From: an uncultured Gammaproteobacteria bacterium
Lineage (GTDB): Bacteria; Pseudomonadota; Gammaproteobacteria; JBBQDK01
Direction: 5' to 3'
Assembly: GCA_963778665.1 (NCBI GenBank)
Contig: CAVZVG010000005.1
Coordinates: 205,805-269,804 of the forward strand
Length of the DNA: 64,000 nucleotides
Shown here: positions 1 through 55,883 of the stretch, one piece after another
How the letters are laid out: the number at the start of each line of letters is the position of its first letter
Numbering within the stretch: position 1 is the first letter of the stretch
The notes under the pieces: generated by a model
What the model was told of the DNA's origin: nothing
The model's input: the letters and a program-made list of their open reading frames with translations, nothing else
Database searches by the model: none
Translations under genes and position numbers: made by a program

Positions 1-702
1 ACGCTGAAGAAGATCATCGACGCGAATCCGGACCGCATTGCGGTGTACAACTACGCCCACCTGCCCACCCTGTTCAAGCCGCAGCGGCGCATCGACGAGG
101 CCGACCTGCCCAGCCCCGACACCAAGCTCGACATTCTCGGGCTGACCATCATGCGGCTCACCGATGCCGGCTATGTGTACATCGGCATGGATCACTTCGC
201 CAAGCCCGACGACGAGCTGGCCATAGCGCAGCGCCGCGGCCGCCTGCAGCGGAATTTCCAGGGCTATTCCACCCACGCCGATGCCGACCTGATCGCCATG
301 GGTGTCTCGGCCATCAGCAAGATCGGCCCCACCTACAGCCAGAATTACCGCGATCTCGACAATTACTACCAAAAGCTCGACACGGGTTCGCTGCCGATCA
401 TGCGCGGCCTCGAACTCACCCAGGACGATCTGCTGCGCCAATGCATCATCAATTCCCTGATGTGCCACTTCGAACTGTTCATGGAACCGGTCGAGATCGC
501 GTTTCTCATCAGCTTCGAAAACTACTTCGCGCCCGAACTGGAAGAACTCAAACAGCTGGAAGATGAAGGACTGCTGACGCTCGGTGACCGCTGGCTCAGC
601 GTGACACCGAAAGGCCGGCTGCTGATCCGCAACATCTGCATGGTATTCGACAAGTACCTGCGTGCCGACAGCAACAACAAGCGTTATTCACGGGTGATAT
701 GA
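1..702 (+). CDS. hemN: Oxygen-independent coproporphyrinogen III oxidase HemN, C-terminal part; the 5' end lies upstream of the window
   Basis: Frame-1 translation from nt 1 (..DRIAVYNYAHLPTLFKPQRRID..) matches the HemN C-terminal region. The ORF track shows 43..702 only because it begins at an internal GTG. Stop TGA at 700-702 overlaps the next gene's ATG. Confidence 0.85.
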   Translation, partial: TLKKIIDANPDRIAVYNYAHLPTLFKPQRRIDEADLPSPDTKLDILGLTIMRLTDAGYVYIGMDHFAKPDDELAIAQRRGRLQRNFQGYSTHADADLIAMGVSAISKIGPTYSQNYRDLDNYYQKLDTGSLPIMRGLELTQDDLLRQCIINSLMCHFELFMEPVEIAFLISFENYFAPELEELKQLEDEGLLTLGDRWLSVTPKGRLLIRNICMVFDKYLRADSNNKRYSRVI

Positions 703-1232
703 CCGCCCGACCGCTTCCGCCAGCGCTGCCCGAATGGCCGCTCACCGTGCTGTTGCGCACGCTGCCGGACAATGTGCATGTCGAGATCCTGGCCAGACTG
801 TTCAACCATCTGCTGCGCGGCCAGAGCATGGCCGAGCGCCTGCCGGAACTGAACGGCAAGCGCATCTGCCTGACATTCACCGACACCCGCAGCGTCCTGC
901 ACTTTCGTATCGAAGGAGGCGGTTTCCGGCGCCAACCCGCCGTTGCCCGCGACAACCGCGCCTGGGACGTGCGCATCAGCGGCACGTTGCATGATTTCCT
1001 GCTGCTGGCGACGCGCCGCGAAGACCCCGACACACTGTTCTTCAACAGACGCCTCGACATCGAAGGCGACACCGAGACAGGCCTGTACGTGAAGAACCTG
1101 CTCGATGCGCTGGACTACGATTTACAGGCTCACCTCGATGCCGTGCTGGGTGCGCGATTCGGCCGGTTGGCCGGCGACGCACTGCGACGCAGCGGTGCCG
1201 AACGCCTGCTGTCCGCGCTTCGGTTGGCGTGA
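699..1232 (+). CDS. ubiT: SCP2 sterol-carrier-domain protein, UbiT-like accessory factor for O2-independent ubiquinone biosynthesis
   Basis: 177-aa ORF with an SCP2-like fold signature. ATG overlaps the hemN stop (ATGA). Neighbours are ubiU/ubiV homologues, as at the E. coli yhbT-yhbUV locus. Confidence 0.65.
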   Translation: MTARPLPPALPEWPLTVLLRTLPDNVHVEILARLFNHLLRGQSMAERLPELNGKRICLTFTDTRSVLHFRIEGGGFRRQPAVARDNRAWDVRISGTLHDFLLLATRREDPDTLFFNRRLDIEGDTETGLYVKNLLDALDYDLQAHLDAVLGARFGRLAGDALRRSGAERLLSALRLA

Positions 1233-1314
1233 TCTCTCTTGGTTTGACCCGCGAAAAAGCAAAATTGGTGTAGCGGGAATGGCTCCGGACGTAGAACGTA
1301 AAACGTAGTAAAAC

Positions 1315-1449
1315 GTAGCCTGGGTTGAGCGACAGCGACAAAACCCGAGGGTTTGTGAAGTTCATAAATGAACTTCACCCGCGGGTGAAGCCATTCGGCT
1401 GTCCAAAATACCTCTGGTGATTTTGTCGCTGCGCTCAACCCAGGCTACA
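1315..1449. repeat. Composite REP/MITE-like palindromic element
   Basis: Outer arms are GTAGCCTGGGTTGAGCG...CGCTCAACCCAGGCTAC; an inner palindrome GTGAAGTTCAT-AAATGAACTTCAC sits between them. It lies in the ubiT/ubiV convergent intergenic space. The same outer arm recurs at ~10.35, 20.65, 20.78 and 63.0 kb, with a diverged arm at 30.95 kb. Confidence 0.7.
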
Positions 1450-1464
1450 TTGCTGAAAGCTGTC

Positions 1465-2361
1465 CTACCTTACCTCACCCTGCCACAGCATGCCGGGCTC
1501 GCCATACCAATAACCGTTGCAGACAGCCGCGTTGAGACAGGCGGCACTGCGCTGTTCCGCCTCGCGCGCCGTCATTGATCCGTCGACCGCGGCGCGGAAC
1601 AGCGCGACGATCTCCTGCATGCCCGACGCCTGCGGTGACAGGCGCAGCACATCGACATTCATTGCCTGCAGTTCGTCCACGGCACCCAGCAGGTTGCAGA
1701 TGCCGCCCGACTGGACCTGAATGCCGTTCAGTGTGAACAGATGCTCGCCCTCGCGGGTATCCATCACCATGCCATCGCTATAATCGGCGCAGCGCAATTG
1801 GCAATCGTCCTTGGGCAGATTGTGCGCGCGCGCCGTGAAACAGCGCGCCGAGAACGCCAGCGGCAACCGGCCGAAGGCGAAGACCTCCGTCTCCAGCCCC
1901 GCCGGTCGCGCCTGTTGCAGTTGCGCGAGTGTGTCGCGCGACAACTCCACCGGCGGCACCCAACGCCGCGCGCCGAGATCGGCAAGCAGTTCGAGCGTCG
2001 CCGCGTTGTAGCTGTTGATGTGCGGACCGGCCACGAACGGCACGCGACCGGCCAGCAGTTGCACGGCACCGATGTCATTGGCCTCGACCCAGAAGCGGCC
2101 GTTATCGACGATGCGCTGCAAGGTCAGCAGCTCGGACTCCGCCTCCAGCAAGGCCAGACTGCTCAATATCACCTGCTTGCCGGCCGCATTCAGTCGTTCG
2201 GCGATCTCCAGCCAATCGGTCAGACGCAGGGCACGGCGCTTGGCACAAACCGTCTCGCCGAGATAGACGCAATCGAGCGGCCAGTCTGTGACGGCCGAAT
2301 AGAAATCGAAGACCGTCTCGCGCGACCAGAAATACAGCAAAGGACCCAGCGAAAGTTTCAT
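1465..2361 (-). CDS. ubiV: U32-family peptidase-like protein UbiV (YhbV homologue)
   Basis: The translation from the ATG (MKLSLGPLLYFW..) aligns with E. coli UbiV (MKYSLGPVLYYW..). Its start overlaps the ubiU stop (ATGA). The ORF track starts 2 codons earlier at a GTG. Confidence 0.8.
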   Translation of the reverse strand: MKLSLGPLLYFWSRETVFDFYSAVTDWPLDCVYLGETVCAKRRALRLTDWLEIAERLNAAGKQVILSSLALLEAESELLTLQRIVDNGRFWVEANDIGAVQLLAGRVPFVAGPHINSYNAATLELLADLGARRWVPPVELSRDTLAQLQQARPAGLETEVFAFGRLPLAFSARCFTARAHNLPKDDCQLRCADYSDGMVMDTREGEHLFTLNGIQVQSGGICNLLGAVDELQAMNVDVLRLSPQASGMQEIVALFRAAVDGSMTAREAEQRSAACLNAAVCNGYWYGEPGMLWQGEVR

Positions 2362-3374
2362 TGCCACGGCCTGTGATACGCACCCAGGGTTGTGGTGCGT
2401 CCTTCAGCGACTTTGTCGAGTTGCATCTGCCAGTCGCGACGTACCGCGAAATGCGTTGGATCGGCCTGACAGGCATCGAGCGCTTCGCGCAGCACTCGCG
2501 TGACCTGTGCGATATACGCCGGACTGCGCTGCCGGCCTTCGACCTTGATCGCGGCGACACCGGCCCGATACAGCTCCGGCAGCATCTCCAGCACATTGAG
2601 ACTGGTGGGTTCTTCCAGCGCATAGAAGGTCTGGCCGCCGACAGCGAAGCGACCCTTGCACAAGGTCGGATAACCGGCGTTTTCATCGGCGGCGTACTGG
2701 TCGATGAGCACGCCGTTGAGACGCGCGCGCCGCCCGAAGCCACCCTCTTCCCAACGCACCGCCTTGGCCGGCGAACAGACGCCACAGGTATTGGGCGATT
2801 CGCCGGTGACGTAGGAAGACAAGGCACAGCGTCCTTCCACCATCACGCAGAGACTGCCGAAACCGAACACCTCCACTTCCGCCGAGGAATTTTCGATGAC
2901 ATGCCGGACCTGCGACAAGGACAGCACGCGCGGCAATACCACGCGCTGTACATTGAAGCGCTCACGGTAGAATGCGATGGCCGGATGATTGGTTGCCGAA
3001 GCCTGCACCGACAGATGCAGGCGCAACTGCGGATGGGTGCGCGCGGCATAGCGCAACAGACCGGGATCCGCCATGATTACAGCATCGATGCCCAGTTGCG
3101 CGGCGCTGTCGACCGCCTGCGTCCAGGTCGCCCAGCGCGCGGGTTGCGGATAGGTATTGATGGCCATGAAGACCTTGCGTCCGGCGGCATGCGCATAGTC
3201 CAGTCCGGCACGCGCCTCCTTGAGATCGAAATTCAGACCGGGAAAATTCCGCGCATTGGTGCCGTCGCGCAGACCGATGTAAACACAGTCCGCGCCATGA
3301 TCGACGGCGGCGCGCAAGGCCGGCAGACTCCCGGCCGGACAGACCAGTTCCATGCGCGCATTCATTGCAGACAT
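2358..3374 (-). CDS. ubiU: U32-family peptidase-like protein UbiU (YhbU homologue)
   Basis: About 338 aa from the internal Met (MNARMELVCPAGSLPAL..), with the conserved Cys pattern (CALSSY...CGVCSP). The ORF track extends to 3452, but that N-terminal extension has no homology. Confidence 0.8.
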   Translation of the reverse strand: MSAMNARMELVCPAGSLPALRAAVDHGADCVYIGLRDGTNARNFPGLNFDLKEARAGLDYAHAAGRKVFMAINTYPQPARWATWTQAVDSAAQLGIDAVIMADPGLLRYAARTHPQLRLHLSVQASATNHPAIAFYRERFNVQRVVLPRVLSLSQVRHVIENSSAEVEVFGFGSLCVMVEGRCALSSYVTGESPNTCGVCSPAKAVRWEEGGFGRRARLNGVLIDQYAADENAGYPTLCKGRFAVGGQTFYALEEPTSLNVLEMLPELYRAGVAAIKVEGRQRSPAYIAQVTRVLREALDACQADPTHFAVRRDWQMQLDKVAEGRTTTLGAYHRPWQ

Positions 3375-3452
3375 GTACAGTGGTCCTGCTGCGCACCCTG
3401 ATAAGTGCCGCGACGCCGCAGCTCCTGTTCGATCCCGTTCAACACACGCCAT

Positions 3453-4298
3453 TTATACCGACACCAGTCCGGTGCCAGCAGCAGCGCCGGCCGATGCGCT
3501 CCCGGTGAGGCGATGAAACACCACCACAGGCGGCGTCATCTCGATGAGATCGGCGGCAACCTGAATGTAGTCGTTGAAGCTCCAGGCGCGATACTCGTCG
3601 CGTCGCCATTCATTGGCGAGCTGCGTGCCCTTCACGACATGCAAGGGATGCAGCTTCAGACCCTCCACACCCAGATTCAGCAGGCGCGCCAGCGTGACGC
3701 GCGCATGCCAGGCCTGTTCGCCCGGCAGTCCGACGATCATGTGCGCGCACACCGGCAGGCCGCGCGCATGGGCGCGGCGCACCGCGTCCTCATACTCGGC
3801 AAAGCCATGACCTCGATTGATACGCGCCAAGGATCTGTCAAAGCTCGATTGCACACCCAGCTCCAGCCAGATCTCGTAACCTTGCGCCCGATACTCCGCC
3901 AGCAGATCCAACACCGCATCCGGGACGCAATCCGGACGCGTGCCGATCGCAAGACCGATCACACCGTCCTGCGCCAGCGCCTCGTCGTACAATTCCCGCA
4001 AGCGCATTGGACTGTCATAGGTGTTGGTATAGGCCTGGAAGTAAGCGAGGAACAATTTTGCCCGGGTACGCTTGGCAATGACGCGCCTGCCGGCGTCGAT
4101 CTGCCGTGCAAGCGGCACCGGTTGCCGGCCGTTGGGACTGAAGGAACTGTTATTGCAGTAGGTGCAACCGCCCCTGCCTTTGCTGCCATCGCGGTTCGGA
4201 CAGGTGAAGCCGACATCGAGCGCCAGCTTGTGTACACGCTCGCCGTAACGGCGCAGCAGATCCTGACCCAGAGTGTTTACCACGGCGGGGAGGTTCAT
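3453..4298 (-). CDS. yhcC: Radical SAM protein, YhcC / TIGR01212 family
   Basis: From MNLPAVVNTLGQDLLRRYGERVHKLALDVGFTCPNRDGSKGRGGCTYCN the protein is collinear with E. coli YhcC (..DLTRRYGQKVHKLTLHGGFSCPNRDGTIGRGGCTFCN..). It sits immediately upstream of ubiU on the same strand, 78 nt gap. Confidence 0.8.
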   Translation of the reverse strand: MNLPAVVNTLGQDLLRRYGERVHKLALDVGFTCPNRDGSKGRGGCTYCNNSSFSPNGRQPVPLARQIDAGRRVIAKRTRAKLFLAYFQAYTNTYDSPMRLRELYDEALAQDGVIGLAIGTRPDCVPDAVLDLLAEYRAQGYEIWLELGVQSSFDRSLARINRGHGFAEYEDAVRRAHARGLPVCAHMIVGLPGEQAWHARVTLARLLNLGVEGLKLHPLHVVKGTQLANEWRRDEYRAWSFNDYIQVAADLIEMTPPVVVFHRLTGSASAGAAAGTGLVSV

Positions 4299-4531
4299 CT
4301 TCGACGGAATCCGACTGTGCCGCGATGCATTACAGGCGTCCGCCAAAACACATCTTTTCCGTAGAAACGCCGAGGACGCGGAGAATATGAATGTTGCTTT
4401 TGATAGCTATGCGCCCTCTGCGGAAGATGCTCATAATCATAGGTGCATACTTGGCCCTGGATTGAGACAAATTCCAATATCAACGAACTCATGAGAAGAT
4501 GGATTTATGCCGTGTCCGTGCGCATGACACA

Positions 4532-4545
4532 TTGATGTGGATCAA
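4532..4545. promoter_or_regulatory. Perfect FNR-consensus box TTGATGTGGATCAA
   Basis: TTGAT-N4-ATCAA palindrome in the yhcC-ubiUV / NMO-family divergent intergenic region, about 70 nt upstream of the likely ATG at 4609. Confidence 0.5.
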
Positions 4546-4608
4546 TCCCATCACACACAGTTGCCGTATCATCTTTCGATTCCAAGAGTGCCCGAGATTC
4601 CGCCCGCA

Positions 4609-5778
4609 ATGATTCATACCTCCCTGCCGCCACTGCTGATCCGTGGACGACGTCTGTTGCCGATCATCCAGGGCGGCATGGGCGTGGGCATCTCCGCGCA
4701 TCAATTGGCAGGCGCCGTCGCCAGGGAAGGTGCCATCGGCACTATCGCCAGCGTCGACCTGCGCCGCCTGCATCCCGATCTGATGGCGCGCACGCGCAGG
4801 ACCTTCGACCACGATGCACTGGCACAGACAAATATAGAGGCATTGGATCGCGAGGTGCGCGCGGCGCGCGAGATCGCCGGCAAGGACGGCTTCCTCGCCG
4901 TGAACGTGATGCGCGCGGTCTCCAACTATGCCGAACTGATCGTGCAGGCCTGCAAGAGCGGCGCGAACGCCATCATCATGGGCGCCGGTCTGCCCATGGA
5001 CCTGCCGGAACTGACGGCCGACTACCCCGATGTCGCACTGATCCCTATTCTGTCCGAAGAGCGCGGCGTACGCGCCGTGTTGAAAAAGTGGTTGCGCAAG
5101 GGTCGCGCGCCGGACGCCATCGTCATCGAACACCCGCGTTACGCCGGCGGCCACCTGGGCGCGACGCGCATCGAGGAAGTCGACGATCCCAAGTTCGATT
5201 TCAAACGCGTGCTGGTGGAAATCCGCGCGGTCCTTGCACAACTCGGTGAGTCGATCGAGAAAATTCCGCTGCTGCCCGCCGGCGGCATCAATTCCTTCGG
5301 CAAGCTGCGCGAACTGTTCGATCTCGGCGCCAGCGGCGCACAGATCGGCACACCGTTCGCGGTCACGACAGAATGCGATGCCCACCCGAACTTCAAAAAG
5401 GTGCTGGCCGACGCCGGACCCGCCGACATCGTCACCTTCATGAGCGCCGCCGGCCTGCCGGCACGCGCCGTGCTGACACCCTGGTTGCAGCGTTACCTCG
5501 CCAAGGAAACGCGCCTGCGCGCCGCGGCCACACCGGGCTGCGGCAACTGCCCGAGCAAACTGGAATGCCTGACACACTGCGGCTTCAAGGACGGCAATCC
5601 CGCCGCCGGTCAATTCTGCATCGAGGCCCAGCTCGCCGCCGCGCAACGCGGCAACATCCACAGCGGCCTGTTCTTCCGCGGCTCCGAATCGCTGCCCTTC
5701 GGCACCGATATCCGCAGCGTGCGCGAACTGCTCGAATTCCTGTTGACCGGCATGAGGCCCGCATCAACCGCGGTCTAG
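4609..5778 (+). CDS. Nitronate monooxygenase / FabK-like NAD(P)H flavin oxidoreductase family protein with a C-terminal Cys cluster
   Basis: PIIQGGMGVGIS FMN-binding motif and a C-terminal CGNCPSKLECLTHCGF. The ORF track starts at 4537, but that would place the FNR box inside the gene, so the Met at 4609 is preferred. Confidence 0.65.
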   Translation: MIHTSLPPLLIRGRRLLPIIQGGMGVGISAHQLAGAVAREGAIGTIASVDLRRLHPDLMARTRRTFDHDALAQTNIEALDREVRAAREIAGKDGFLAVNVMRAVSNYAELIVQACKSGANAIIMGAGLPMDLPELTADYPDVALIPILSEERGVRAVLKKWLRKGRAPDAIVIEHPRYAGGHLGATRIEEVDDPKFDFKRVLVEIRAVLAQLGESIEKIPLLPAGGINSFGKLRELFDLGASGAQIGTPFAVTTECDAHPNFKKVLADAGPADIVTFMSAAGLPARAVLTPWLQRYLAKETRLRAAATPGCGNCPSKLECLTHCGFKDGNPAAGQFCIEAQLAAAQRGNIHSGLFFRGSESLPFGTDIRSVRELLEFLLTGMRPASTAV

Positions 5779-6409
5779 ACACCCTGTTCGGATGTACTGT
5801 TTGGTGGAATCAGAGTCACCGGATCCGATGGCGTATCCGATAGGAAATTGTAACTTCTCTCATTGCCAGACTCCGACCAGCCCGCGACATAAAGCAAGCT
5901 GATCGAGACCATGTGAACGGCAGCTTTTGACTGAAAAGCCGACGCATGGAACGATAGACTTTGACCCACTCCGGTCGTTCAGTCATTCCTTACAATCCCG
6001 GCTGCTAACAGACGTGAAACGGCCCAAATCGAGGCTTACACATTGTACTTCGTGAAATATTACGCGACGCGGATAAGTAAATTATCCAGCGGCGTGTCAG
6101 ATAACCCGACAACCAGGCAGCAACGGTGTTTCTGCAACATATACCCACGGTCCAGTCACTTTCCTGCCCTGCACGTATCCAGTGCTGTCAGTATATTTAA
6201 CATCATCACCACGCATCCATTCTGCTGAAAATTGCCGCGAATAATTCATCACCAAAAAAACAGTGCATTAGATGCCTGCGCCACCTGGCTGGAATGAATC
6301 TTGCCCGTAGTTATAAAAATAAGCGGTCCATGAATCGACGCAGACCGGCGGCCTCCTGAATAGAACTGGGATTGAGCCAACGACAAAGGTTTTTTACGGA
6401 GAACGTCAC

Positions 6410-7061
6410 ATGAAACGATTTCGGTTAACCAGTGCTGTCTGTGCCGCTGTTTTCGGTTTTATCACGTTGCCATCCCATGCCGCATTAGTAGCTCGGGACC
6501 TGGATGGTAACCTGACCACCGCCGAGGCCTATTACGATACTATCGCGGACCTGACTTGGCTGGCGGATGCCAATGCGGCGGGAACGACCATGAACTGGGC
6601 TGATGCCAACGCCTGGGCGGCCAGTCTCGACATCAATGGCGTCACCGGCTGGCGGCTACCCTCCTCGTTAAATTCTGATGGTTCCGGTCCCTGTGGCCCA
6701 TCCTTCTACTGCACCGACAGCGAGATGGGAAACCTGTTCCATAGCGTATTGGGTGGTACAGCGGGTTATTCGATCACCACAACCCATAACAGCAACTATG
6801 ACCTGTTTTCCAACGTCCAGTCCAGACTGGTATTGGTCTGCCATGGAGTACGCGCCCAATCCTCCTCGCGACGCGTGGGTCTTCAACTTCATTGGTGGCG
6901 GCATCCAGAGCGCTAGTATTAAGACCGCTAGCTACTATGCGTGGGCTATACAGTCAGGCGATGTCGGCGCGGCCGTTGTACCGGTACCCGCCGCGTTCTG
7001 GTTGTTCGGCAGTGGTTTGTTGGGGCTGATTGGAGCCTCCTCGCGAAAGCAAGCAGCCTGA
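6410..7061 (+). CDS. DUF1566 (Lcl-like) domain protein with a PEP-CTERM sorting signal, interrupted by an apparent +1 frameshift near 6820
   Basis: Signal peptide MKRFRLTSAVCAAVFGFITLPSHA, then ..GWRLPS.. (frame of 6410) continuing as DWYWSAMEY..AWAIQSGDV plus VPVPAAFWLFGSGLLGLIGASSRKQAA (frame of 6678). The shift falls in a GTCCAGTCCAG direct repeat. GC is lower than the flanks. Confidence 0.55.
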
Positions 7062-7619
7062 TCAAATTCATACATGAACGGCACTTCGGAGCCGTTCTCC
7101 TTTACGCGGGAATGTCGCATTCTGGCCGAACTGTGCCAGTCGTGTTTTTAGGCTGAACGGCCTATTTCGACCCAACCCCGCCGTTCAGGCTGGCGCAATA
7201 ACTCGCCGTCAATTTTCCCGACTCGGTCATTCGAGCTGGGACATGAAACCTCCATCAGGGGCCCTAAGGTTGTATTCTGGACGTGCTATCGAGAAGCTGG
7301 GCACGCAAGAACCGGTAGCTGGTGCCATGGAATGAAATAACAAGCCGATATTAATCCTCAAACAGTCATGCTTCATTTGGAAAATAATTTAGGCTTCGTA
7401 GTGGGAGTTCACGTTGTTGATTTGACTATCGGCAAAAGTGATAGGGAGCTCAATTGATCCGTTTGCAACGGAGCTTTTAAGCCCCCCATCAGTAGTTAGC
7501 TTATATAATTAAGTGTCTTCTAGAAATATGAACTTGACTATTGTGGGCAAGTTTCAGATTGGCCTCTTGTTTATTATGGTAGTGAGAGGGTAACTTTGAA
7601 AGCGATAAACACAATATGG

Positions 7620-8263
7620 ATTTCCACTGCGCCACGTACTGGTTCTATGTCGGCTTTTCAATGTGGCACGAGAAATTCTTCGGACCGTAGGACTTCAAGT
7701 TGAACCTGAGGTTACACTGCAAAGTGATGAGGATATGTTTCGGCAAGCTACTCAGTTTGCATCTGCCTCGCATGATCCAACCAAGGTATGGGTGCTGAAG
7801 GTTCATAAGATCCTTAGGCCGGATCTTCATCGATCGAAAGTGATTACCACGACCGGGATCCGCGCGATGTGCTAGTGTCTTCAAGGAATTTATGAAGACC
7901 AGTTTTGACGAGTCACTCGGTTGCGCCAGATCGGTAGTACACTATACCGAAACTTATAAGGACTATGACCCCAGTTACCTCATGCTAGTAGTTTACAATG
8001 ATATTGAGACGCGCCCGGTAGAATTAATACTGGAGATTGCGGAGTTTCTTGAGGTTCAGGTCAGTGAAATTAATGCCAGGAAAATAGCTCTGAAGTACTC
8101 ACGAGAAAAAGTCAAGAGCCTCATCGAAAAATCCAACAAGTCGCTGGCCAAGAAGCTTGCTAGAGAAAGAAACCAATCGACCACAGCGATATGGTTTACA
8201 TTTCCGATCCTAATTTCCGTGCTTTTGATCGCAAGCAGGCTTTCAAACCGGGAATGTCTATAA
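7620..8263 (+). pseudogene. Decayed sulfotransferase-family gene remnant with multiple frameshifts
   Basis: Motif fragments sit in three frames: KVWVLKVHKILRPDL, RDPRDVLVS at ~7858 (the classic sulfotransferase 3'-PB motif), and a C-terminal YDPSYLMLVVYNDIETRPVELILEIAEFLEV. The region is AT-rich. Confidence 0.5.
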
Positions 8264-8716: not shown

Positions 8717-9733
8717 TCAACAAATCCGCGGCAGCGGATCATCTTCCAGTTCTTCGAGGAGACGCTGGCCGCCGAGTTCTGTCTCCAACACCACGTGCGC
8801 GCGACCGGTCTGCAGCGTGCCGATGATGGCTGCCTCCGCGCATGGCGTCAGCGTTTGCAGCGCTGCCAGCGCGGCCGTCGCATGCGCGGCATCGACCACG
8901 GCCAGCACCCGGCCTTCGCAGGCGAGGTACAGCGGGTCGTAGCCGAGCATCTCGCAGACCGAGCGCACCGGATCGCGCACCGGAATCGCGGCGCCGTCGA
9001 GATGCACGCCGAGCTGGGTGGCGCGACAGATTTCATTGGCCACGGTGGCCAGACCGCCACGGGTCGGATCGCGCATGAAGCGCAGGCCAGGCACGGTCAG
9101 CAAGGCCTGCGCGATCGGCAGCACACTGGCGGCATCCGATTGCAGATCACCGCGCAAACCGAACTGCTCGCGCGCCAGCATCACCGCCGTGCCGTGATCG
9201 CCCACCGGTCCGCTGATCAGCAGCCGGTCGCCGGCCTGAATGGTGGACATGCCGAGCCGCACCGACGTGTTGCGTACACCGATGCCGGTGGTGGCGAAGT
9301 AAACACCGCCGCCCTCCCCGCGCCGCAGCACCTTGGTATCGCCCGCGACAATCTGCACTCCGGATTCGCGCGCGGCGCGCGCCATGCTGATCACGATGCG
9401 CTCCAGCAGCGCGACCTCCAGACCTTCCTCGATGAATGCGTTCAAGGTGAGATAGCGCGGGATCGCGCCGGAGACCGCCAGGTCATTCACCGTGCCGTGC
9501 ACCGCCAGACTGCCGATGTCGCCGCCGGGAAACTCCAGCGGCTGCACGGTGAAGCCATCGGTGGTCACGACCATTTCGCCGGCGTCCGCCCAGGGTACCG
9601 TGGCCGCGTCGACGTCGGTCGACAACAGGGGATTGGCCAGATGACGCGCGAACAACTCTTCGATCAGCTCGCGCATGAAGCGTCCGCCGTTGCCATGGGC
9701 CAGTGAGATATGGGTATCCTGCATGTTCGTCAT
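8717..9733 (-). CDS. hypE: [NiFe] hydrogenase maturation protein HypE (carbamoyl dehydratase)
   Basis: MTNMQDTHISLAHGNGG.. N-terminus and C-terminal ..PRIC are HypE hallmarks; about 338 aa. Confidence 0.85.
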   Translation of the reverse strand: MTNMQDTHISLAHGNGGRFMRELIEELFARHLANPLLSTDVDAATVPWADAGEMVVTTDGFTVQPLEFPGGDIGSLAVHGTVNDLAVSGAIPRYLTLNAFIEEGLEVALLERIVISMARAARESGVQIVAGDTKVLRRGEGGGVYFATTGIGVRNTSVRLGMSTIQAGDRLLISGPVGDHGTAVMLAREQFGLRGDLQSDAASVLPIAQALLTVPGLRFMRDPTRGGLATVANEICRATQLGVHLDGAAIPVRDPVRSVCEMLGYDPLYLACEGRVLAVVDAAHATAALAALQTLTPCAEAAIIGTLQTGRAHVVLETELGGQRLLEELEDDPLPRIC

Positions 9734-9925
9734 GAGTCGTCCTGAGTCGATGTCCTGTCGACAGTTTACACGGAATCGCCGCATTCACAGCCCGGTTCAT
9801 CGCTGGTCACGACGGAATTTCCTGATATGATGCGCGGGGCCGGAATTCATGCGGTCTTGCAATCACGGCAGCCGTTAACGGCACGACCGTTTCCGGATAA
9901 CGACGATAATATTTGGAGAATCGCC

Positions 9926-10320: not shown

Positions 10321-10404
10321 GCTTACTCAAGCCCTTACTCAAGAATGTAGCCTGGGTTGAGCGCAGTGAAACCCGGGTTTCGCTATCGCTCAACCCAGGC
10401 TACA
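10321..10404. repeat. REP/MITE-like element, family A, full copy
   Basis: CTCAAGCCCTTACTCAAGAATGTAGCCTGGGTTGAGCGCAGTGAAACCCGGGTTTCGCTATCGCTCAACCCAGGCTAC, about 95% identical to 20761-20836. It lies between the convergent dsrE-like and pseudouridine-synthase genes and overlaps the synthase's last codons. Confidence 0.7.
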
Positions 10405-20621: not shown

Positions 20622-20715
20622 CCTGGATTGATTGTCGGCCGCAGAGGCAGCAGTGAAACCCGGGTTTCGCTATCGCTCAACCCAGGCTACGTCCTGGATT
20701 GATTGTCGGCCGCAG
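20622..20715. repeat. Half-copy of REP family A (48 bp) flanked by a perfect 23-bp direct repeat CCTGGATTGATTGTCGGCCGCAG
   Basis: Direct repeat at 20622-20644 and 20693-20715 brackets CAGTGAAACCCGGGTTTCGCTATCGCTCAACCCAGGCTAC, 8 nt after the apbE stop. Confidence 0.6.
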
Positions 20716-20760: not shown

Positions 20761-20836
20761 CAAGCCCTTACCCAAGAATGTAGCCTGGGTTGAACGCAGT
20801 GAAACCCGGGTTTCGCTATCGCTCAACCCAGGCTAC
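20761..20836. repeat. REP/MITE-like element, family A, full copy
   Basis: Near-identical to 10321-10404. Lies in the apbE / DUF3570 convergent intergenic region, 7 nt from the DUF3570 stop. Confidence 0.7.
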
Positions 20837-22818: not shown

Positions 22819-23478
22819 TCAGAAAAACACCGTCATGCCGCCGGTGAATTCCAGATTGTGCGTGGTCTTGCTGGTGCCGAGCAGATCGCTGCTGAAGACG
22901 TGATCGCGTACGTCCGCGTGCAAGGCCAGCCAGTCCGTGGCGAGCAGGCGGTAACCGGTGCCGAAGTTCACCGTGAAGCGGCTGTCGTTGGCGAATTTGG
23001 TGCTGCCGACACCGGCGATCACGTAGAGTGCCGAATTGAAGGCGTGCTTGCTGCCGATGAAGGCCTCGCCCGGCAGCAGGTTGTACCCCAGGGAGATGTT
23101 GTAATAGCTGTAGACACGTTCGGCATCGGTAAGCACACGGGCCGATCCGCTGAGCGTTTCGTAACTGGTCTTGCCGACGGTGCTGCGGCCGTAGGCGCCT
23201 TCGGCGAAGAAGTCCTCGGTGATGTGATAGGCACCGCGCAGGCCGTAGACCGGGTTCGAGCCGAAGTCTTCGACGCTGAGCACGCCGGCATAGGCACCCA
23301 GCTCGAAGTCGGCACTGTCGATATGCGGCGTCGTGATCGTACGCCGCGAAATACCGGGGTCGATGATCGGCTCATCCTGATCATCCGCGGCGAATGTCGC
23401 CGCGCTGCCGAGCGTCACGCAGGCCAGCAGCGCCGCGCCGAATCGCTTCAGAAAAATACCGTGCAGCCAATTTTCCAT
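22819..23478 (-). CDS. Outer-membrane beta-barrel protein (OmpA-like 8-strand barrel family)
   Basis: Signal peptide MENWLHGIFLKRFGAALLACVTLGSAATFA; C-terminal ..EFTGGMTVFF. Overlaps the upstream gene's stop by 31 nt. Confidence 0.6.
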   Translation of the reverse strand: MENWLHGIFLKRFGAALLACVTLGSAATFAADDQDEPIIDPGISRRTITTPHIDSADFELGAYAGVLSVEDFGSNPVYGLRGAYHITEDFFAEGAYGRSTVGKTSYETLSGSARVLTDAERVYSYYNISLGYNLLPGEAFIGSKHAFNSALYVIAGVGSTKFANDSRFTVNFGTGYRLLATDWLALHADVRDHVFSSDLLGTSKTTHNLEFTGGMTVFF

Positions 23479-24185
23479 TCGTTGATCCCCTGATTGCTGT
23501 CTCTGTTTTGATAGACGACATAATTGTTGTACTCGGCGCGCAGCAACAGGCGGCGCGCCAGATAGGTACGCACGCCGACACCGACGTGAGTGGTGCCGTC
23601 CGAGCGGTTCTGACTCTGTACCAGCGTGACCTGCGGGTCGGTTCGTATCACACCGCTGCCCAGCGCGAAGAACGGTGACACGCGCCATTCCGGGAACGGC
23701 TGCGCCACCAGGTTCACATTCAGCATCAGACTATCGGAATATGTCCCCAACACCTGCGACAGAGACAATTCCGTCGCCAGTGTCGGCGTGAAGGCATAAC
23801 CGCCGTAGGCAGTGATCACATGCGCGCCACCGAAACTGCCGCCCAGCACGCCCAGTTCCCAGCGCCGCCGGTTGTAGTCGTCACGGCTCGCATCCGCGAG
23901 GCGCAAGGGCTGACCGGCGGCAAGTTGCGTCTGCTCGATCTGCTTGCGTGTCACCCAACCCTGCTTGCCGCGTGCGGTGCGCACCTTGAACCAGTCGGTC
24001 TTGCGCAGCAGTATCTCTATCCATTCACCCCGCTCCGCCACATAGAAAATCGGATAGCCGCGTCCCGGTCCGGTATGCAGTTCGACATATGGTGCACGCA
24101 CCTCGACACGCAACGCTTCCTTGCCCTGCGCGAGCGGCACAACCAACCAGGCCAGCAACAGCCAGATGAGTACAGGCTTGCGCAC
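23448..24185 (-). CDS. SH3-domain plus outer-membrane beta-barrel fusion protein
   Basis: Bacterial SH3-like segment (ALRVEVRAPYVELHTGPGRGYPIFYVAERGEWIEILLRKTDWFKVRTARGKQGWV) then a barrel ending ..KIGCTVFF. A GTG start overlapping the upstream TAG (TAGTG) gives signal peptide MRKPVLIWLLLAWLVVPLAQG; the alternative ATG is at 24242. Confidence 0.6.
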   Translation of the reverse strand: MRKPVLIWLLLAWLVVPLAQGKEALRVEVRAPYVELHTGPGRGYPIFYVAERGEWIEILLRKTDWFKVRTARGKQGWVTRKQIEQTQLAAGQPLRLADASRDDYNRRRWELGVLGGSFGGAHVITAYGGYAFTPTLATELSLSQVLGTYSDSLMLNVNLVAQPFPEWRVSPFFALGSGVIRTDPQVTLVQSQNRSDGTTHVGVGVRTYLARRLLLRAEYNNYVVYQNRDSNQGINEWKIGCTVFF

Positions 24186-26818
24186 TAGTTGAGCGGCGCC
24201 GCAAACGGGTCGTTGTAATACTGCGCGCCGATGTCCAGCCATTCGGATATCAGGCGCAGTTCCGCCGGATTCAGCCAGCCCGCGTGCGTGCCGCCGCTGG
24301 CGAACTCGGCGAAGAAGCGACTCGAAGCGCGCGCCCCCGCCGTCGACATCGCAGGCGTCACCGGCACGGTGACCATGATCGGGATCGGCTGGTTGTTCAC
24401 ATCCAGCACCTGGTTGCCATTGGCATCGAGCAGGAACAGTGGATTGCCGTTGGCATCGGTGGCCTGGACCAGTTGATCCTGTAGCACGCCACCGACAAGT
24501 TCCTGCGCGTTGTCGGCGGCCAGCAACTCCTGGTAGGACTTCAGACGATCCGCCTGTTGGTCGGACTGACCGTCACTGAGATCAAGCTGCGCGGCGGGTA
24601 CCTGCGCCGCGCCGTTCAAATCCACATTGTTGTGACAATTGGTGCAGGTGTGATTGGCGATTTCCACCCCGTTGCCGTCCAGCACCGGACGAGGCGTACT
24701 CCAGAGCGGATGGATGTGCTGCGGATAATGTATGACGATGCGGCACAGGCTGTTCCACAGGATCTGGCAATTGGGCGTGGTCGGCGCGGGCGTGGTCAGG
24801 TCGCTATAGCGATAGCTGAAGTCGGCATCCTTGGCACGCAGCGCCGGATCGGTCCAGACATCGTCGAAGTTGATCTCGACGCTGGGCAGCAGTGCATTCG
24901 GTGTGAGGCGTGTGCGCGTCTCGGCCATGGTCTCGCCGTAATCGGCGAACATGGCAGGATCCGTGTCGGGGAAAGGCAGTCCGGTGGTGGGCGCGCCGGC
25001 ATTGATCGAGGTCGCGACGGCATCGGCCCGACCGTGCGCGGGCGGTGTCGCGGCACCGGTGTTGTGCTGATGGCAGCCGCTGCAGGTCTGCGTTTCGCCG
25101 GCACGCAGCTGCAGCCAGTTCGAGTGCCGCGCACCGATGCGCCGACCTTCGCTGTCGAGCACTTCGAGTTCGAAGGCGACATTGGCAGGCACTTCGATCT
25201 TCACCGAGCCGTCGGGTTCGATAGGCGCATAACCCAGTATCTCGCGCATCGACTGCTGACTGCTGGCGCCGAAGGCCGTGGCCTTGAAATCGCGCACCGT
25301 CTTATCCGGTATGCTGACGGCCTTCACCAGGCGCAGGAAACGCGCCGGACGCTGCGCCGCCGTGGTCTTGGCGGGATCGGCAAGATCGGCGAGTGATGTG
25401 ATGTTGGCGGCAGACGTGCAGTCACTGAGGAAGCAACCATTGAACGTGCCGGTGCCGAAATCGTAGACACTGCGGATATCCAGCACGCCGACGTTGTCCG
25501 CTATCAGACCCGCGTCGAGACCATTGCCGGCGATGCCGTCATACAACAGCGTCGGTCGCGGGCGCGGTTGCGCGACGATCACATCGGTATAGATCACGCC
25601 TTCCTGCGGCGCGACCACCGGCAGTTGCGTATCGCCGGCACGGTTATAAATGAAGATGCCATACAGTGGCGGCGCTTCCTGGACGTTTTGCGCGGCGAGA
25701 CCTTGCGCGGTGCAGGGCACGATATTGCCGTTTTCGATCAGACGACAGGCACTCCAGCTGACCAGCATGCGATCGGAGCCATCCCAGAGCGGATCGGCGG
25801 CACTGTATCGTCCGCCGGGCGAGGGACCGACGGCGGTCTGCACCGCATTGACTATCGCGCGGGTCTGCGCGGGCCCTGTCAGCACGTTCCGGCTCGTCCA
25901 GACCGGTCTATCGTTGTCGACATAGTCGGTCGTATCGATGAGCGTCAGATCGCCGCCCTGGTCGGTGCCGGTGAAGGGACGCGTGATCGTCAACAGGCGA
26001 CCGTCGGGATAAAGCCGCGGACGCAGGAACTGCACCGTATCGCCGGCACTGCCGGTGGCATGGCTGTGAGCGCCGTACAGCACCTGCATGTCCGTGCCAT
26101 CCGGGCGCACAGTATAGAGATTCATGGCATTGCTGGTGCCCATGTGATCCCAGCGGCTGAACAGCACCCGACCGTCACTGAGCAGCGTGGGATCGAGATC
26201 ATTGCTCTGGTTGAACGTGATCTGATGCATGTCGCTGCCGTCGCCGTTCATGACATGCAGTACCAGCGCCGCTTGCTGACGGTTTTCGTTCAGGGCGGCG
26301 AACTGCGGCTTGCCTTCATCGAGCAGTACGGCGCGTGACTGCCGTTGGCGCGTGGATGAAAAAACGATACGCCCATCGGCGAGGTAATGCGGCGCGACAT
26401 CATCGCCTTCTTTGGCGATGATGTCGGAGCTGATCAGACGGTGCAGTTGCCGGCTGACAGTATCGTACTCCCAGATATTCCATTTGGTCTGATCGGCGGG
26501 AGTCGCGCCGGTTATTTCCGGTTCGTGCAGCGCGAACAGCAGCGTCTTGCCGTCGTACGAGGCAGTGACATCCTTCACATCGCCAAGTCCTTGCGTCACG
26601 GTCGCGGTGACATTGCGCTCCGCCGCGCTGGGTGACGCGTAATCGCGATAATACAGATCGCCGCCGGGCGACATGGCCAGGGGATCGCGCGCATCTTCCT
26701 GTTGATCTGCTATCAAAGGACGCTTCACATAGGCAATGCCGACATCGGCGACGATCGGATCGGGCGCCTGACTGCCGCCACCGCAGCCGGTGAGATGCAA
26801 CAACAGACACGCCAACAT
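24185..26818 (-). CDS. Lipoprotein with a TolB/WD40-like beta-propeller region and two c-type haem-binding motifs
   Basis: Lipobox MLACLLLHLTGC. PD40-like repeats (..GRIVFSSTRQRQSRA.., ..GRVLFSRWDHMG..). CSGCHQHN and CTNCHNNV CxxCH motifs. 877 aa. Confidence 0.65.
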   Translation of the reverse strand: MLACLLLHLTGCGGGSQAPDPIVADVGIAYVKRPLIADQQEDARDPLAMSPGGDLYYRDYASPSAAERNVTATVTQGLGDVKDVTASYDGKTLLFALHEPEITGATPADQTKWNIWEYDTVSRQLHRLISSDIIAKEGDDVAPHYLADGRIVFSSTRQRQSRAVLLDEGKPQFAALNENRQQAALVLHVMNGDGSDMHQITFNQSNDLDPTLLSDGRVLFSRWDHMGTSNAMNLYTVRPDGTDMQVLYGAHSHATGSAGDTVQFLRPRLYPDGRLLTITRPFTGTDQGGDLTLIDTTDYVDNDRPVWTSRNVLTGPAQTRAIVNAVQTAVGPSPGGRYSAADPLWDGSDRMLVSWSACRLIENGNIVPCTAQGLAAQNVQEAPPLYGIFIYNRAGDTQLPVVAPQEGVIYTDVIVAQPRPRPTLLYDGIAGNGLDAGLIADNVGVLDIRSVYDFGTGTFNGCFLSDCTSAANITSLADLADPAKTTAAQRPARFLRLVKAVSIPDKTVRDFKATAFGASSQQSMREILGYAPIEPDGSVKIEVPANVAFELEVLDSEGRRIGARHSNWLQLRAGETQTCSGCHQHNTGAATPPAHGRADAVATSINAGAPTTGLPFPDTDPAMFADYGETMAETRTRLTPNALLPSVEINFDDVWTDPALRAKDADFSYRYSDLTTPAPTTPNCQILWNSLCRIVIHYPQHIHPLWSTPRPVLDGNGVEIANHTCTNCHNNVDLNGAAQVPAAQLDLSDGQSDQQADRLKSYQELLAADNAQELVGGVLQDQLVQATDANGNPLFLLDANGNQVLDVNNQPIPIMVTVPVTPAMSTAGARASSRFFAEFASGGTHAGWLNPAELRLISEWLDIGAQYYNDPFAAPLN

Positions 26819-27159
26819 GCCGCGCAGAACGTGGCAGGGCGTGGTCGATCCGTTGGCAGTGACATTCAGAATACGCACCTACACACATCCATCCATTGTC
26901 TGTCGCTGGGATTGCATTATCGTTTGACAGTGATTTCACGATCTGACGACGTGATCACAAAAATGTCAGGAAAAGTTTGCAGAATGGTCACCACAGAGTC
27001 GGGCAACATGCAGGGACGGAAAAGATGCCGGTTATCGGGGACAGCATTGATGATGACACACCGATCTGTGCAGGACGCGCAACAACACTCTATGCGATGT
27101 CCGGATCGACAGACCGCAACCGGCACTCAAACGACAGGCAACAGAAGGGGAAACAGCCA

Positions 27160-53847: not shown

Positions 53848-54963
53848 TCACTCGACCGGGGCCGTGTCCGGCCGCGCCTCGCGTACGCCGCTGGCCCACC
53901 AGATACGGCAGGCCCCCTCATCGGATACCATGCACGGACCGATCGGATGACGCGGGTGACAGGCGCGACCGAACAGACGGCATTGGTCGGGATAAATCTT
54001 ACCCAGCACGACCTTGGCGCAATCGCAGCCCGGCGGCATCTCGCCGATACGTTTGCGTGTCGGATCGTCATGCGCGGGCAACTGCAGCCGGGCATCGTGC
54101 TGCGCGAACGCCGGCTTGAGCGCGAATCCCGAGGCGGGAATCATGCCTACGCCACGCCAGTTGGCGGCGACGACATCCAAGGCCGAATCGAGACACTCCC
54201 TTGCTTTGACATTGCCGCCGGGCCGCACCACTTCGGGGTAGCAGTTGTCGAGAAAGCGCTCGCCTTCGATGAGTTGGCGCAAGGTGGAGTACATGGCCGC
54301 GAGCAGTGTTTCGGGCGCGAAACCGGCGATGGCGGATGGAATGCGATGTTTCTCGACCACGAACCGCCATTCTTCCGGGCCCATGATCGTGGCGACATGA
54401 CCCGGCGCGACCAGGGCGTCGAAACCCGGCGTGTCGGAATCGAGCAGCATGGCCACCGCCGGCCAGGTGAGGCGGCCGGAGAGCAGCACCAGCAGATTGT
54501 CCGGTATGCCTTCCATCAGCATGCCGGCGACCGGTGCGGTGGTGGTTTCGAAGCCGGCGGCGAAGAACACCACCGTGCGTGACGGTTCCGCCCGCGCGAT
54601 GCGCACCGCCTCGCTTGGCGAGGCGATCGGCCGCACATCCGCACCCGCCGCCTTGGCCTCTTCCAGCGAACGGATATCACCTTTCGGCACATTGACCGGC
54701 ACGCGCAGCATGTCGCCGAACGCCACCAGGATCAGGTCTTCCTTGAGCGCCAGCTGGATGGCTTCGTAGACATCCTCTTCAGGACAGACGCACACCGGAC
54801 AACCCGGACCGGGTATGAGCTCGATATTCTTGGGCAAGGCACCGCGCAAGCCGGCCATGGAAATGGCGCGCTCATGACCGCCGCACACGTTCATGATTCG
54901 CACCTTGTCCGGCAAGGGCAGTTGGCGGATCTTTTTCAGCCAGTCCTGGGCACTCAGCTGCAT
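53848..54963 (-). CDS. hypD: Hydrogenase maturation factor HypD
   Basis: CGGHE, GPGCPVC, CPVC.., ..FETT.. motifs; 371 aa. Confidence 0.9.
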   Translation of the reverse strand: MQLSAQDWLKKIRQLPLPDKVRIMNVCGGHERAISMAGLRGALPKNIELIPGPGCPVCVCPEEDVYEAIQLALKEDLILVAFGDMLRVPVNVPKGDIRSLEEAKAAGADVRPIASPSEAVRIARAEPSRTVVFFAAGFETTTAPVAGMLMEGIPDNLLVLLSGRLTWPAVAMLLDSDTPGFDALVAPGHVATIMGPEEWRFVVEKHRIPSAIAGFAPETLLAAMYSTLRQLIEGERFLDNCYPEVVRPGGNVKARECLDSALDVVAANWRGVGMIPASGFALKPAFAQHDARLQLPAHDDPTRKRIGEMPPGCDCAKVVLGKIYPDQCRLFGRACHPRHPIGPCMVSDEGACRIWWASGVREARPDTAPVE

Positions 54964-55097: not shown

Positions 55098-55883
55098 TCA
55101 CAATATCTGGGAATCGCGCCGCTTGTGCACATGCCCGGCGACACCCTCACCCGCGTGCCGCAGTTCATCGCCGGCGCGCAAGGCAGCGACATGCTTGCGC
55201 AGCCAATTGGTCCAACCGTCCATGTCCAGACTCTTCTTTGCGGACAAGGCGATGACCGGCGCATCGCTGGCCAGGTTGCGCATATGTGCTTTGACCCGAT
55301 CGATGGAGAAGTCATCCATGTACGGCATGAGGTCGGTCTTGGTCACCAGCACGGCATCCGCGGCACGGAACATGACCGGATACTTGACCGGCTTGTCGTC
55401 GCCTTCCGTGACTGACAGCAGGATGACGTTCAGGTGCTGACCGAGATCGAAGCTGGCCGGACAGACCAGGTTGCCGACATTCTCGATAAAAAGGATATCC
55501 GCATTGTCGAGTGTCATGTGGTGGAGTGCATCGTGCACCATATGCGCATCGAGATGGCAGGCCGTGCCCGTGCTGATCTGATGGGCGGGCACGCCCTTGG
55601 CACGAATGCGCTCGGCATCGTTTTCGGTTTCCAGATCGCCTTCGATGACGGCGATGCTGAATTCATCTTTCAGGGCATCGATGCTCGCTTCGAGCAAGGC
55701 GGTCTTGCCGGCGCCGGGCGAGGACATGAGATTGATGACCAGCAGGTCGTGCTCATTGAAGTGCGCACGGTTGTGCGCGGCCTGATGGTTGTTCTCGGAC
55801 AGCAGCCCCTCCAGCACTTCGACGCTATGCGGATTTTCGGTCTTGTGCTGCTCGGTAACGTTGCAACCGCAGGTATCGCACAT
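55098..55883 (-). CDS. hypB: Hydrogenase nickel incorporation GTPase HypB
   Basis: N-terminal MCDTCGC metal site; P-loop SSPGAGKT; 261 aa. Confidence 0.85.
   Translation of the reverse strand: MCDTCGCNVTEQHKTENPHSVEVLEGLLSENNHQAAHNRAHFNEHDLLVINLMSSPGAGKTALLEASIDALKDEFSIAVIEGDLETENDAERIRAKGVPAHQISTGTACHLDAHMVHDALHHMTLDNADILFIENVGNLVCPASFDLGQHLNVILLSVTEGDDKPVKYPVMFRAADAVLVTKTDLMPYMDDFSIDRVKAHMRNLASDAPVIALSAKKSLDMDGWTNWLRKHVAALRAGDELRHAGEGVAGHVHKRRDSQIL

Follow-up and report, generated by a model that had tools for sequence, protein, structure and literature searches.

A MnmL/YhcC-type radical SAM gene at the head of ubiU-ubiV: a probable FNR/Anr-controlled island of oxygen-independent Fe-S enzymes in an uncultured gammaproteobacterium

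Why does a radical S-adenosylmethionine (SAM) gene stand at the head of an operon for oxygen-independent ubiquinone synthesis? The question is raised by the left end of a 64,000-nucleotide stretch of contig CAVZVG010000005.1 from an uncultured gammaproteobacterium (assembly GCA_963778665.1, positions 205,805 to 269,804), the whole of which is referred to here as the window. In this locus, yhcC is followed on the minus strand by ubiU and ubiV, which converge on the plus-strand pair hemN-ubiT. The first-pass annotation of this DNA took the tight linkage as a sign that the YhcC-type enzyme acts in anaerobic quinone or tetrapyrrole metabolism. Our analysis points in a different direction. The locus is probably an FNR/Anr-controlled island of O2-independent iron-sulfur (Fe-S) enzymes from different pathways that were joined by a shared regulatory need, and the radical SAM gene most likely encodes, judging from its sequence, the tRNA enzyme MnmL/YhcC rather than a new quinone enzyme. 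At least three unrelated pathways are combined in this island, i.e., heme synthesis (HemN), ubiquinone synthesis (UbiTUV) and tRNA modification (MnmL).

The genes of the locus can be assigned with family profiles. As encoded, yhcC (or mnmL; 3453–4298, minus strand) matches TIGR01212 with 338 bits (cutoff 180) and carries a Radical_SAM and a partial Radical_SAM_C domain in Pfam; its start at 4298 (MNLPAVV) agrees with the N-termini of its homologs. The two U32-family [4Fe-4S] subunits of the O2-independent hydroxylase are encoded by ubiU (2358–3374, minus strand; NF047963, 561 bits, cutoff 440) and ubiV (1465–2361, minus strand; NF047965, 412 bits, cutoff 275), with an ATGA overlap of the ubiU stop and the ubiV start at 2358–2361. 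For ubiU, three start codons are candidates (3374, 3365 and 3353), and the relatives are annotated with a product of 338 residues. UbiU and UbiV are 58% and 45% identical to their Escherichia coli counterparts, and the equivalents of the [4Fe-4S] cysteines (four in each protein), as defined in Pelosi 2019 (PMC6747719), are all aligned: C169, C176, C193 and C232 in UbiU, and C39, C180, C193 and C197 in UbiV. On the plus strand, the SCP2-domain protein UbiT, an accessory factor for making ubiquinone anaerobically, is encoded at 699–1232 (NF047962, 125 bits, cutoff 47; Pfam SCP2). The ubiT start and the hemN stop overlap as ATGA at 699–702. Only the 3′ part of hemN, the gene for the oxygen-independent coproporphyrinogen III oxidase, is present (1–702, plus strand; 233 codons), cut by the window edge. 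These C-terminal 233 residues alone reach 318 bits with TIGR00538 (profile positions 223–454; equivalog cutoff 325) and also match HemN_C in Pfam. The closest relatives, the metagenome-assembled genome contigs L081 (GCA_009712145.1) and L083, whose YhcC is 88–89% identical, encode a HemN of 468 residues with both Radical_SAM and HemN_C, and with an identical 4-nucleotide overlap to ubiT. On the other side, a gene for an NMO-family flavin mononucleotide (FMN) protein, FabX-like and with a C-terminal four-Cys motif, diverges from yhcC (4609–5778, plus strand; Pfam NMO, 120 bits). Profile scores and sequence thus bear out the genes and ATGA overlaps listed by the first-pass annotation, as well as its remark that yhcC is unlinked to ubiUV in E. 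coli: in strain K-12, ubiU is found at 3,301,485 and yhcC at 3,353,121, around 50 kb apart.

The same annotation described a gap of 78 nucleotides between yhcC and ubiU. This gap is present in the sequence as read, but it is an artefact of a one-nucleotide insertion. DNA alignment to L081, L083 and a third relative, L082, shows one extra base that frameshifts the minus-strand yhcC at 3487/3488, where the plus strand reads CC in the window and a single C in the relatives; on the coding strand, the window has GGCCGGCGC and all three relatives have GGCC-GCGC. As a consequence, the encoded YhcC loses its frame at residue 270, continues with 11 wrong residues and ends at a TAA stop after residue 281, covering positions 2–265 of the 302 positions of TIGR01212. 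The remainder of the gene is found out of frame at 3362–3486 (minus strand; 41 codons and a TGA). There, the +1 frame reads through ALLLAPDWCRYKWRVLNGIEQELRRRGTYQG to CLQ and the stop codon, i.e., it ends in ALLLAPDWCRYKWRVLNGIEQELRRRGTYQGAQQDHCTCLQ, the conserved C-terminus of the family. In an alignment to 14 homologs, this displaced segment keeps P276, W278, C279, K282, W283, R295–G297 and Q300–G301, and its 41 codons are free of stops and further indels, with every invariant family position unchanged. With the extra base removed, YhcC has 311 residues, the length of its closest homologs (88–89% identity at 100% coverage), and scores 384 bits with TIGR01212 over profile positions 2–299 of 302. 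The TGA of the repaired gene, at 3362–3364, sits within the start region of ubiU and overlaps it either by 13 nucleotides, with the ATG at 3374 that is annotated in the relatives, or as ATGA, with the ATG at 3365. Because the repaired stop overlaps the ubiU start, the ancestral state would be three translationally coupled genes, yhcC-ubiU-ubiV. The earlier view that yhcC forms one unit with ubiU and ubiV is therefore supported, as a unit of transcription and translation.

The insertion itself is an error of the assembly or else marks an inactivation that took place very recently. In the latter case, the yhcC of the window would be a recent pseudogene that has lost its last 41 residues, the gap would uncouple ubiU and the operon would here consist of ubiUV only. 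The single-base insertion relative to three relatives fits this explanation, and so do the invariant residues in the lost part, including K282, the counterpart of R279 in the proposed RNA-binding cleft of the E. coli protein. Moreover, an AGGA around 9–12 nucleotides upstream of the ubiU ATG at 3374 makes independent translation of ubiU possible. Nonetheless, with 41 intact out-of-frame codons in which every invariant residue is kept, the inactivation would have to be extremely recent. A second gene split by a frameshift within 3.5 kb additionally suggests an indel-prone assembly. This is an Lcl_C/PEP-CTERM gene on the plus strand, of which the open reading frame (ORF) at 6410–6916 matches Lcl_C positions 4–49 and the ORF at 6678–7061 matches positions 66–116 plus PEP-CTERM. 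The intact displaced codons and this second split gene together favor the assembly error, and we consider a pseudogene somewhat unlikely. Taken by itself, the split of the gene at 6410–7061, whose product combines a signal peptide, Lcl_C and PEP-CTERM, may point to an indel-prone assembly or to pseudogenization. Elsewhere in the window, two minus-strand ORFs (22819–23688 and 23448–24242) overlap by around 240 nucleotides in different frames and each carry an OMP_b-brl domain; they may represent either two neighboring paralogs or one more gene with a frameshift.

How widespread is the order yhcC-ubiU-ubiV? One genome per species of the GTDB set was scanned with a YhcC alignment, and the best 80 loci (49–71% identity) were kept and searched with the proteins of the window. 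Note that these loci represent the nearest relatives of the query and thus a phylogenetically biased, not a random, sample. In 52 loci, ubiU and then ubiV lie directly downstream of yhcC on the same strand; in three more, ubiU occurs within 3 kb but not directly downstream. No ubiU is found near yhcC in 19 loci, and in the remaining six a contig end is too near to judge. The direct arrangement is hence present in 52 of the 74 informative genomes, and ubiU within 3 kb in 55 of them, so the adjacency is not restricted to the genome studied here, an outcome that the first-pass annotation had left open. In at least 32 loci, ubiT is near yhcC as well. All linked loci belong to beta- or gammaproteobacteria, mostly sulfur oxidizers, and span 52–71% YhcC identity. 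The gammaproteobacterial ones comprise Chromatiaceae/Chromatiales, Thiohalophilus, Sedimenticolaceae, Woeseiaceae, Thiodiazotropha, Acidiferrobacterales and Thioglobus; the betaproteobacterial ones comprise Thiobacillus, Sulfuricella, Gallionella, Methylotenera, Nitrosomonadales and Hydrogenophilales. Genomes without the linkage belong mainly to Enterobacterales, Vibrio/Photobacterium, Aeromonas, Motiliproteus and Aromatoleum. L081 and L083 have the layout of the window, with an NMO-family gene diverging from yhcC (311 residues)-ubiU-ubiV, which in turn converges on ubiT-hemN, and with an fnr gene diverging from hemN on the far side. The NMO-family gene is the divergent neighbor of yhcC in all three relatives, L081–L083. 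Five Thiobacillus loci (L029, L037–L039 and L050) read nmo-yhcC-ubiU-ubiV, with ubiT coming next in all cases in which the contig is long enough, and the reference genome of Thiobacillus denitrificans has the same nmo-yhcC-ubiU-ubiV-ubiT order (Data S5, 10.1101/2023.12.21.572861). Among the best 120 YhcC homologs (298–339 residues), all contain radical SAM domains only and no fusion of YhcC to a U32 protein occurs.

The probable identity of the radical SAM protein is indicated by its E. coli ortholog. Over 298 residues, the YhcC of the window shares 49% identity with E. coli YhcC, and it falls within the same NCBIfam equivalog, TIGR01212, which is now named "tRNA modification radical SAM protein MnmL/YtqA". 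Genetic and in vitro evidence has established E. coli YhcC as the tRNA demodifying enzyme MnmL, which is needed anaerobically for the conversion of 5-carboxymethylaminomethyl-2-thiouridine (cmnm5s2U) to 5-aminomethyl-2-thiouridine (nm5s2U) in tRNA, and the purified, reconstituted protein performs this conversion in vitro (bioRxiv 10.64898/2026.05.18.725915). According to the same preprint, the oxidase domain of MnmC requires O2 and yhcC is activated by FNR. The reaction on tRNA is known for E. coli YhcC and, genetically, for MnmL of Bacillota. In the window, the radical SAM cysteines C33, C45 and C48 are present, and C33, which is essential in vivo in E. coli, is invariant in 53 ubiUV-linked and 20 unlinked sequences. 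K21 and R279, the two cleft residues of the E. coli protein, are replaced by R21 and K282, conservative changes that are clade-specific rather than linkage-specific. More generally, linked and unlinked YhcC proteins differ consistently at no column of the alignment, and the unlinked ones are interspersed among the linked. For instance, an unlinked YhcC from Gallionellaceae (L053) shares 88% identity with the linked one of L061. In a published sequence similarity network, the operon-linked YhcC proteins of Thiobacillus, Thioploca and Sulfuricella are placed in group 4 together with E. coli YhcC (Data S5, 10.1101/2023.12.21.572861).

One alternative is that YhcC, and perhaps the FabX-like flavoprotein too, is a lineage-specific part of the O2-independent ubiquinone or heme pathway. 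That 52 of 74 genomes, beta- as well as gammaproteobacterial, keep the coupled yhcC-ubiU-ubiV order speaks for such a role, as do the five Thiobacillus loci with nmo-yhcC-ubiU-ubiV(-ubiT) and the operon-bearing genomes that are scored MnmC-negative. Furthermore, no measurement of anaerobic ubiquinone in a yhcC mutant was found in the literature searched. However, the known substrate of the E. coli ortholog, in vivo and in vitro, is tRNA, and the two systems work separately in that organism. Expression of ubiUV from a pBAD plasmid restores ubiquinone-8 in aerobically grown E. coli ubiIHF mutants, together with UbiT and with O2 not being the oxygen donor (PMC10470549), a setting in which not even over-expression makes E. 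coli YhcC active (Fig. S4 legend, 10.64898/2026.05.18.725915). Since UbiUV makes ubiquinone-8 where YhcC is inactive, it needs no YhcC in E. coli; conversely, YhcC acts on tRNA alone in vitro and thus needs no UbiUV. Enterobacteria, Vibrio and Aeromonas carry yhcC without a nearby ubiU, and neither a diagnostic residue nor overall divergence sets the linked proteins apart. Nor is coupling in itself a mark of a common pathway, as hemN and ubiT are likewise joined by an ATGA overlap in the very same locus and nobody takes these two to share a pathway. Cross-pathway coupling is rather a local rule. The suggested function of YhcC in quinone or tetrapyrrole metabolism is consequently not supported, and neither is the use of tight linkage as evidence for a pathway. 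We regard this role, which would consist in electron supply or removal, or substrate modification, for UbiUV or HemN, instead of or besides the reaction on tRNA, as unlikely. A slim chance is left for a real functional dependence within (nmo-)yhcC-ubiU-ubiV, either with YhcC and/or the FabX-like protein as a lineage-specific accessory component of the hydroxylase, for instance a redox partner, or with the anaerobic ubiquinone pool as an electron sink. In the second version, the pool could take up electrons from MnmL, HemN and the FabX-like dehydrogenase, whose O2-free reactions are net-oxidative. If true, such a dependence would provide O2-independent hydroxylation and radical SAM oxidations with further components or with an electron sink.

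If not a pathway, what do the genes have in common? A perfect palindromic FNR/Anr box (TTGATGTGGATCAA, TTGAT-N4-ATCAA) is located at 4532–4545, between yhcC and the NMO-family gene. It is the sole perfect TTGAT-N4-ATCAA in the 64-kb window, with a chance expectation of 0.05. The box is also perfect at the orthologous position in L081 (TTGATGTACATCAA) and L083 (TTGATCCACATCAA). The FNR site reported earlier for the divergent region is thus real, unique and conserved, and the anaerobic theme that the first-pass annotation had seen in this locus holds. On either side of the box, a −10-like hexamer is found. CATAAA (4504–4509, minus strand), 22 nucleotides from the box, would belong to a putative yhcC-ubiUV promoter, and the motif CGGCATAAA is conserved in L081, L082 and L083. 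TATCAT (4567–4572, plus strand), 21 nucleotides from the box and conserved in the relatives, would belong to a putative promoter of the FabX-like gene. From this geometry, transcription is predicted to start at around 4497 for yhcC and 4580 for the NMO-family gene, which would place the center of the box at about −41.5 of two putative divergent class II promoters. A scan with the sigma-70 consensus returned no promoter in the spacer (4299–4608). As FNR class II promoters do not have a −35 element, this empty result is expected and uninformative.

The box is nearer to the NMO-family gene (63 nucleotides from its ATG at 4609, center at −70) than to yhcC (234 nucleotides from its ATG at 4298, center at around −240). 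The long leader of yhcC in the window is due to a segment of around 110 nucleotides (about 4300–4410) that is missing from L081 and L083; in L081, where yhcC starts at 4653, the box (4553–4566) precedes the ATG by only around 90 nucleotides. The extra segment contains a short GCGTCC...GGACGC inverted repeat, and no repeat copy of it occurs elsewhere in the window. A scan of positions 1–6500 against Rfam at E ≤ 1 gave a chance match to a small nucleolar RNA only, with no riboswitch or small RNA in the yhcC leader. Outside the window, the 300 nucleotides upstream of yhcC in the other loci (around 22 kb in total) contain eight perfect and around 11 one-mismatch FNR boxes. Background densities in the same loci are 0.011 perfect and 0.10 one-mismatch boxes per kb, so that around 0.25 perfect boxes are expected upstream and FNR-type boxes are strongly enriched there. 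The boxes mostly occur 70–150 nucleotides ahead of the yhcC ATG, also in many genomes without an NMO-family gene at that place, and E. coli yhcC has an FNR-like box (TTGATCCAGGTCAT) at −75. That the adjacency is meaningless, i.e., clade-inherited synteny with an FNR box that serves the NMO-family gene only, is in line with the shorter distance of the box to that gene in the window and with the biased sampling of the 80 loci, but is very improbable given that the arrangement spans many beta- and gammaproteobacterial groups at 52–71% YhcC identity, that boxes precede yhcC where the NMO-family gene is lacking, that the large distance in the window stems from the leader insertion and that a conserved −10-like element faces yhcC.

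A candidate for the regulator is encoded next to the locus in the relatives. The fnr gene beside hemN (9615–10376 in L081, 8092–8853 in L083) scores 262 bits with NF008365, the Fnr subfamily (cutoff 228), and its product has a CX2CX5C motif (CSNCSLRELC) and an ETVSR recognition helix. The spacer between hemN and fnr contains a further FNR box, which is perfect in L083 and has two mismatches in L081. As the window starts inside hemN, the syntenic spot lies to the left of its position 1 and any fnr gene there falls outside the window.

These observations suggest the following scenario. At low O2, an FNR-type regulator, whose gene lies beyond hemN in the close relatives, would bind the palindrome at 4532–4545. 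The leftward promoter would then drive mnmL(yhcC)-ubiU-ubiV, and the rightward promoter the FabX-like FMN/[4Fe-4S] gene. By analogy with the E. coli orthologs, UbiU-UbiV would hydroxylate ubiquinone precursors without O2 with the help of the lipid-binding UbiT, HemN would carry out the O2-independent oxidation of coproporphyrinogen, and MnmL would, likewise without O2, act on tRNA by taking the carboxymethyl group off cmnm5s2U34. Both the UbiUV heterodimer and the prephenate-dependent hydroxylation of ubiquinone precursors were described for the E. coli proteins (PMC6747719, PMC10990095), and ubiUV is activated by FNR in that species. Being O2-labile and useful only at low O2, such enzymes may have been joined and translationally coupled without taking part in a common pathway, with co-regulation as the presumed reason for their linkage.

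Several points weigh against a purely regulatory explanation. A coupled order that is kept across two proteobacterial classes exceeds what co-regulation usually brings about and normally hints at functional coupling. The five Thiobacillus loci headed by the NMO-family gene have no FNR box (up to two mismatches) within 300 nucleotides, and regulation may differ there. In addition, the enzyme roles assumed for the operon-bearing organisms are taken over from E. coli orthologs and may not apply in full. Thioploca ingrica and Sulfuricella denitrificans carry the cluster and are scored MnmC-negative (Data S5, 10.1101/2023.12.21.572861), so that the logic of MnmL as a backup for MnmC, as in E. coli, is not literally transferable to these two; T. 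denitrificans is scored MnmC-positive in the same table. With these points taken into account, we still consider an FNR/Anr-controlled island the probable explanation.

The divergent gene may add a fourth low-O2 function to this island, in unsaturated fatty acid synthesis or in redox metabolism, as far as its sequence can tell. The best solved relative of its product (389 residues) is FabX of Helicobacter pylori (7e1q), which is matched over nearly the full length with E = 2e-49. In the alignment to 7e1q and 9jsy, cysteines are found at the positions of C300, C304, C308 and C320, and GGH at that of His182. FabX is an FMN/[4Fe-4S] decanoyl-ACP (acyl carrier protein) dehydrogenase/isomerase of unsaturated fatty acid synthesis, for which O2 is the only known acceptor (PMC8626469). 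The two proteins are thus alike in full-length similarity, in the four cluster cysteines and in the catalytic histidine. The similarity (172 bits), however, stays well short of the >50% identity used for FabX homologs in PMC8626469, and the electron acceptor of H. pylori FabX is O2, whereas the homolog in the window is preceded by an FNR box. Right after this gene, the stretch at 6000–8000 has a low GC content (0.50, against about 0.60–0.63 in its flanks) and few long ORFs. Synteny with L081 stops there, and a foreign insertion may be present.

A palindromic repeat of the repetitive extragenic palindrome/miniature inverted-repeat transposable element (REP/MITE) type occupies the spacer between the convergent ubiT and ubiV (1316–1447). 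Its termini (TAGCCTGGGTTGAGCG...CGCTCAACCCAGGCTA) have nine matches in the window against 0.43 expected. The spacer folds with −101 kcal/mol (z = −8.2), and the repeat may serve as a bidirectional terminator. In L081, the same spacer is only 61 nucleotides long, and the close relatives are without the repeat there. Further copies in the window are located at 10348–10402, 20674–20689, 20781–20835 and 62997–63012. Far from the island, the window also contains a [NiFe]-hydrogenase locus with the small subunit (57717–58802), a CCG/4Fe-4S Isp-like protein (59460–60722) and the large subunit (61230–62990). Maturation genes are found as well, comprising hypF (51249–53579), hypD (53848–54963) and a hypB-like gene (55098–55889), and a hypE-like gene with an AIR-synthase fold is set apart at 8717–9784. 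The hydrogenase locus is consistent with a hydrogen- and sulfur-oxidizing lithotroph. Finally, an ORF of 897 residues (24185–26878, minus strand) combines a PD40 beta-propeller repeat with a middle domain of the hydrazine synthase alpha type (PF18582, 59 bits).

The wiring of yhcC into a low-O2 ubiUV operon in dozens of species offers independent support for the anaerobic role of MnmL, and it indicates that ubiUV operons can hold passengers from other pathways. The FabX-like FMN/[4Fe-4S] gene becomes a testable candidate for a further FNR-controlled low-O2 function. For annotation, the locus calls for caution: conserved and even translationally coupled gene order may reflect shared oxygen regulation rather than a shared pathway, and guilt by association would mislabel YhcC as a quinone enzyme. 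All gene families involved are already known. What is new is how widely the operon occurs among species, together with its translational coupling, the bidirectional FNR site in common, the FabX-like partner and the frameshift of the yhcC in the window. The yhcC-ubiUV(-ubiT) adjacency is tabulated, correctly annotated, for Thioploca, Sulfuricella and Thiobacillus in the supplement of a 2023 preprint (10.1101/2023.12.21.572861), but the text of that paper is silent on it and names gltB, gltD, arcB, ptsN and elbB as neighbors. The 2026 preprint (10.64898/2026.05.18.725915) gives arcB as the gammaproteobacterial neighbor of yhcC and makes no mention of ubiquinone. The adjacency is absent from this preprint and from the ubiTUV papers, and a literature search for yhcC with ubiU returned nothing.

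Compared with known systems, the radical SAM gene resembles E. coli YhcC, i.e., MnmL (YtqA/MnmL in Bacillus subtilis), in its TIGR01212 membership, 49% identity, C33, FNR-type box and anaerobic context. In E. coli, however, yhcC is monocistronic and located by arcB and gltB, 50 kb from ubiUV, whereas in the window it heads the ubiUV operon and is frameshifted. With the UbiTUV systems of E. coli and Pseudomonas aeruginosa (Pelosi 2019; Arias-Cartin 2023), the locus has in common the equivalog scores, the eight cysteines and the ubiU-ubiV adjacency, and the control of ubiU-ubiV by FNR in those species has its putative counterpart in the window. The published ubiTUV architectures (Pelosi 2019, Fig. 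3C) cover ubiT, ubiU and ubiV only. In the window, by contrast, a radical SAM gene is coupled ahead of ubiU, ubiT is coupled to hemN and the box is common to a FabX-like gene. The third point of comparison is the anr-hemN neighborhood and the Anr/FNR regulon, which the locus resembles in the FNR-family gene beside hemN, with a box in the spacer, in the relatives. O2-independent substitutes (HemN/HemF, NrdD/NrdAB, TrhP/TrhO) are a theme of the 2026 preprint as well (10.64898/2026.05.18.725915). Here, unlike in that regulon, several such substitutes are physically merged, with overlapping reading frames, in one island of around 6 kb.

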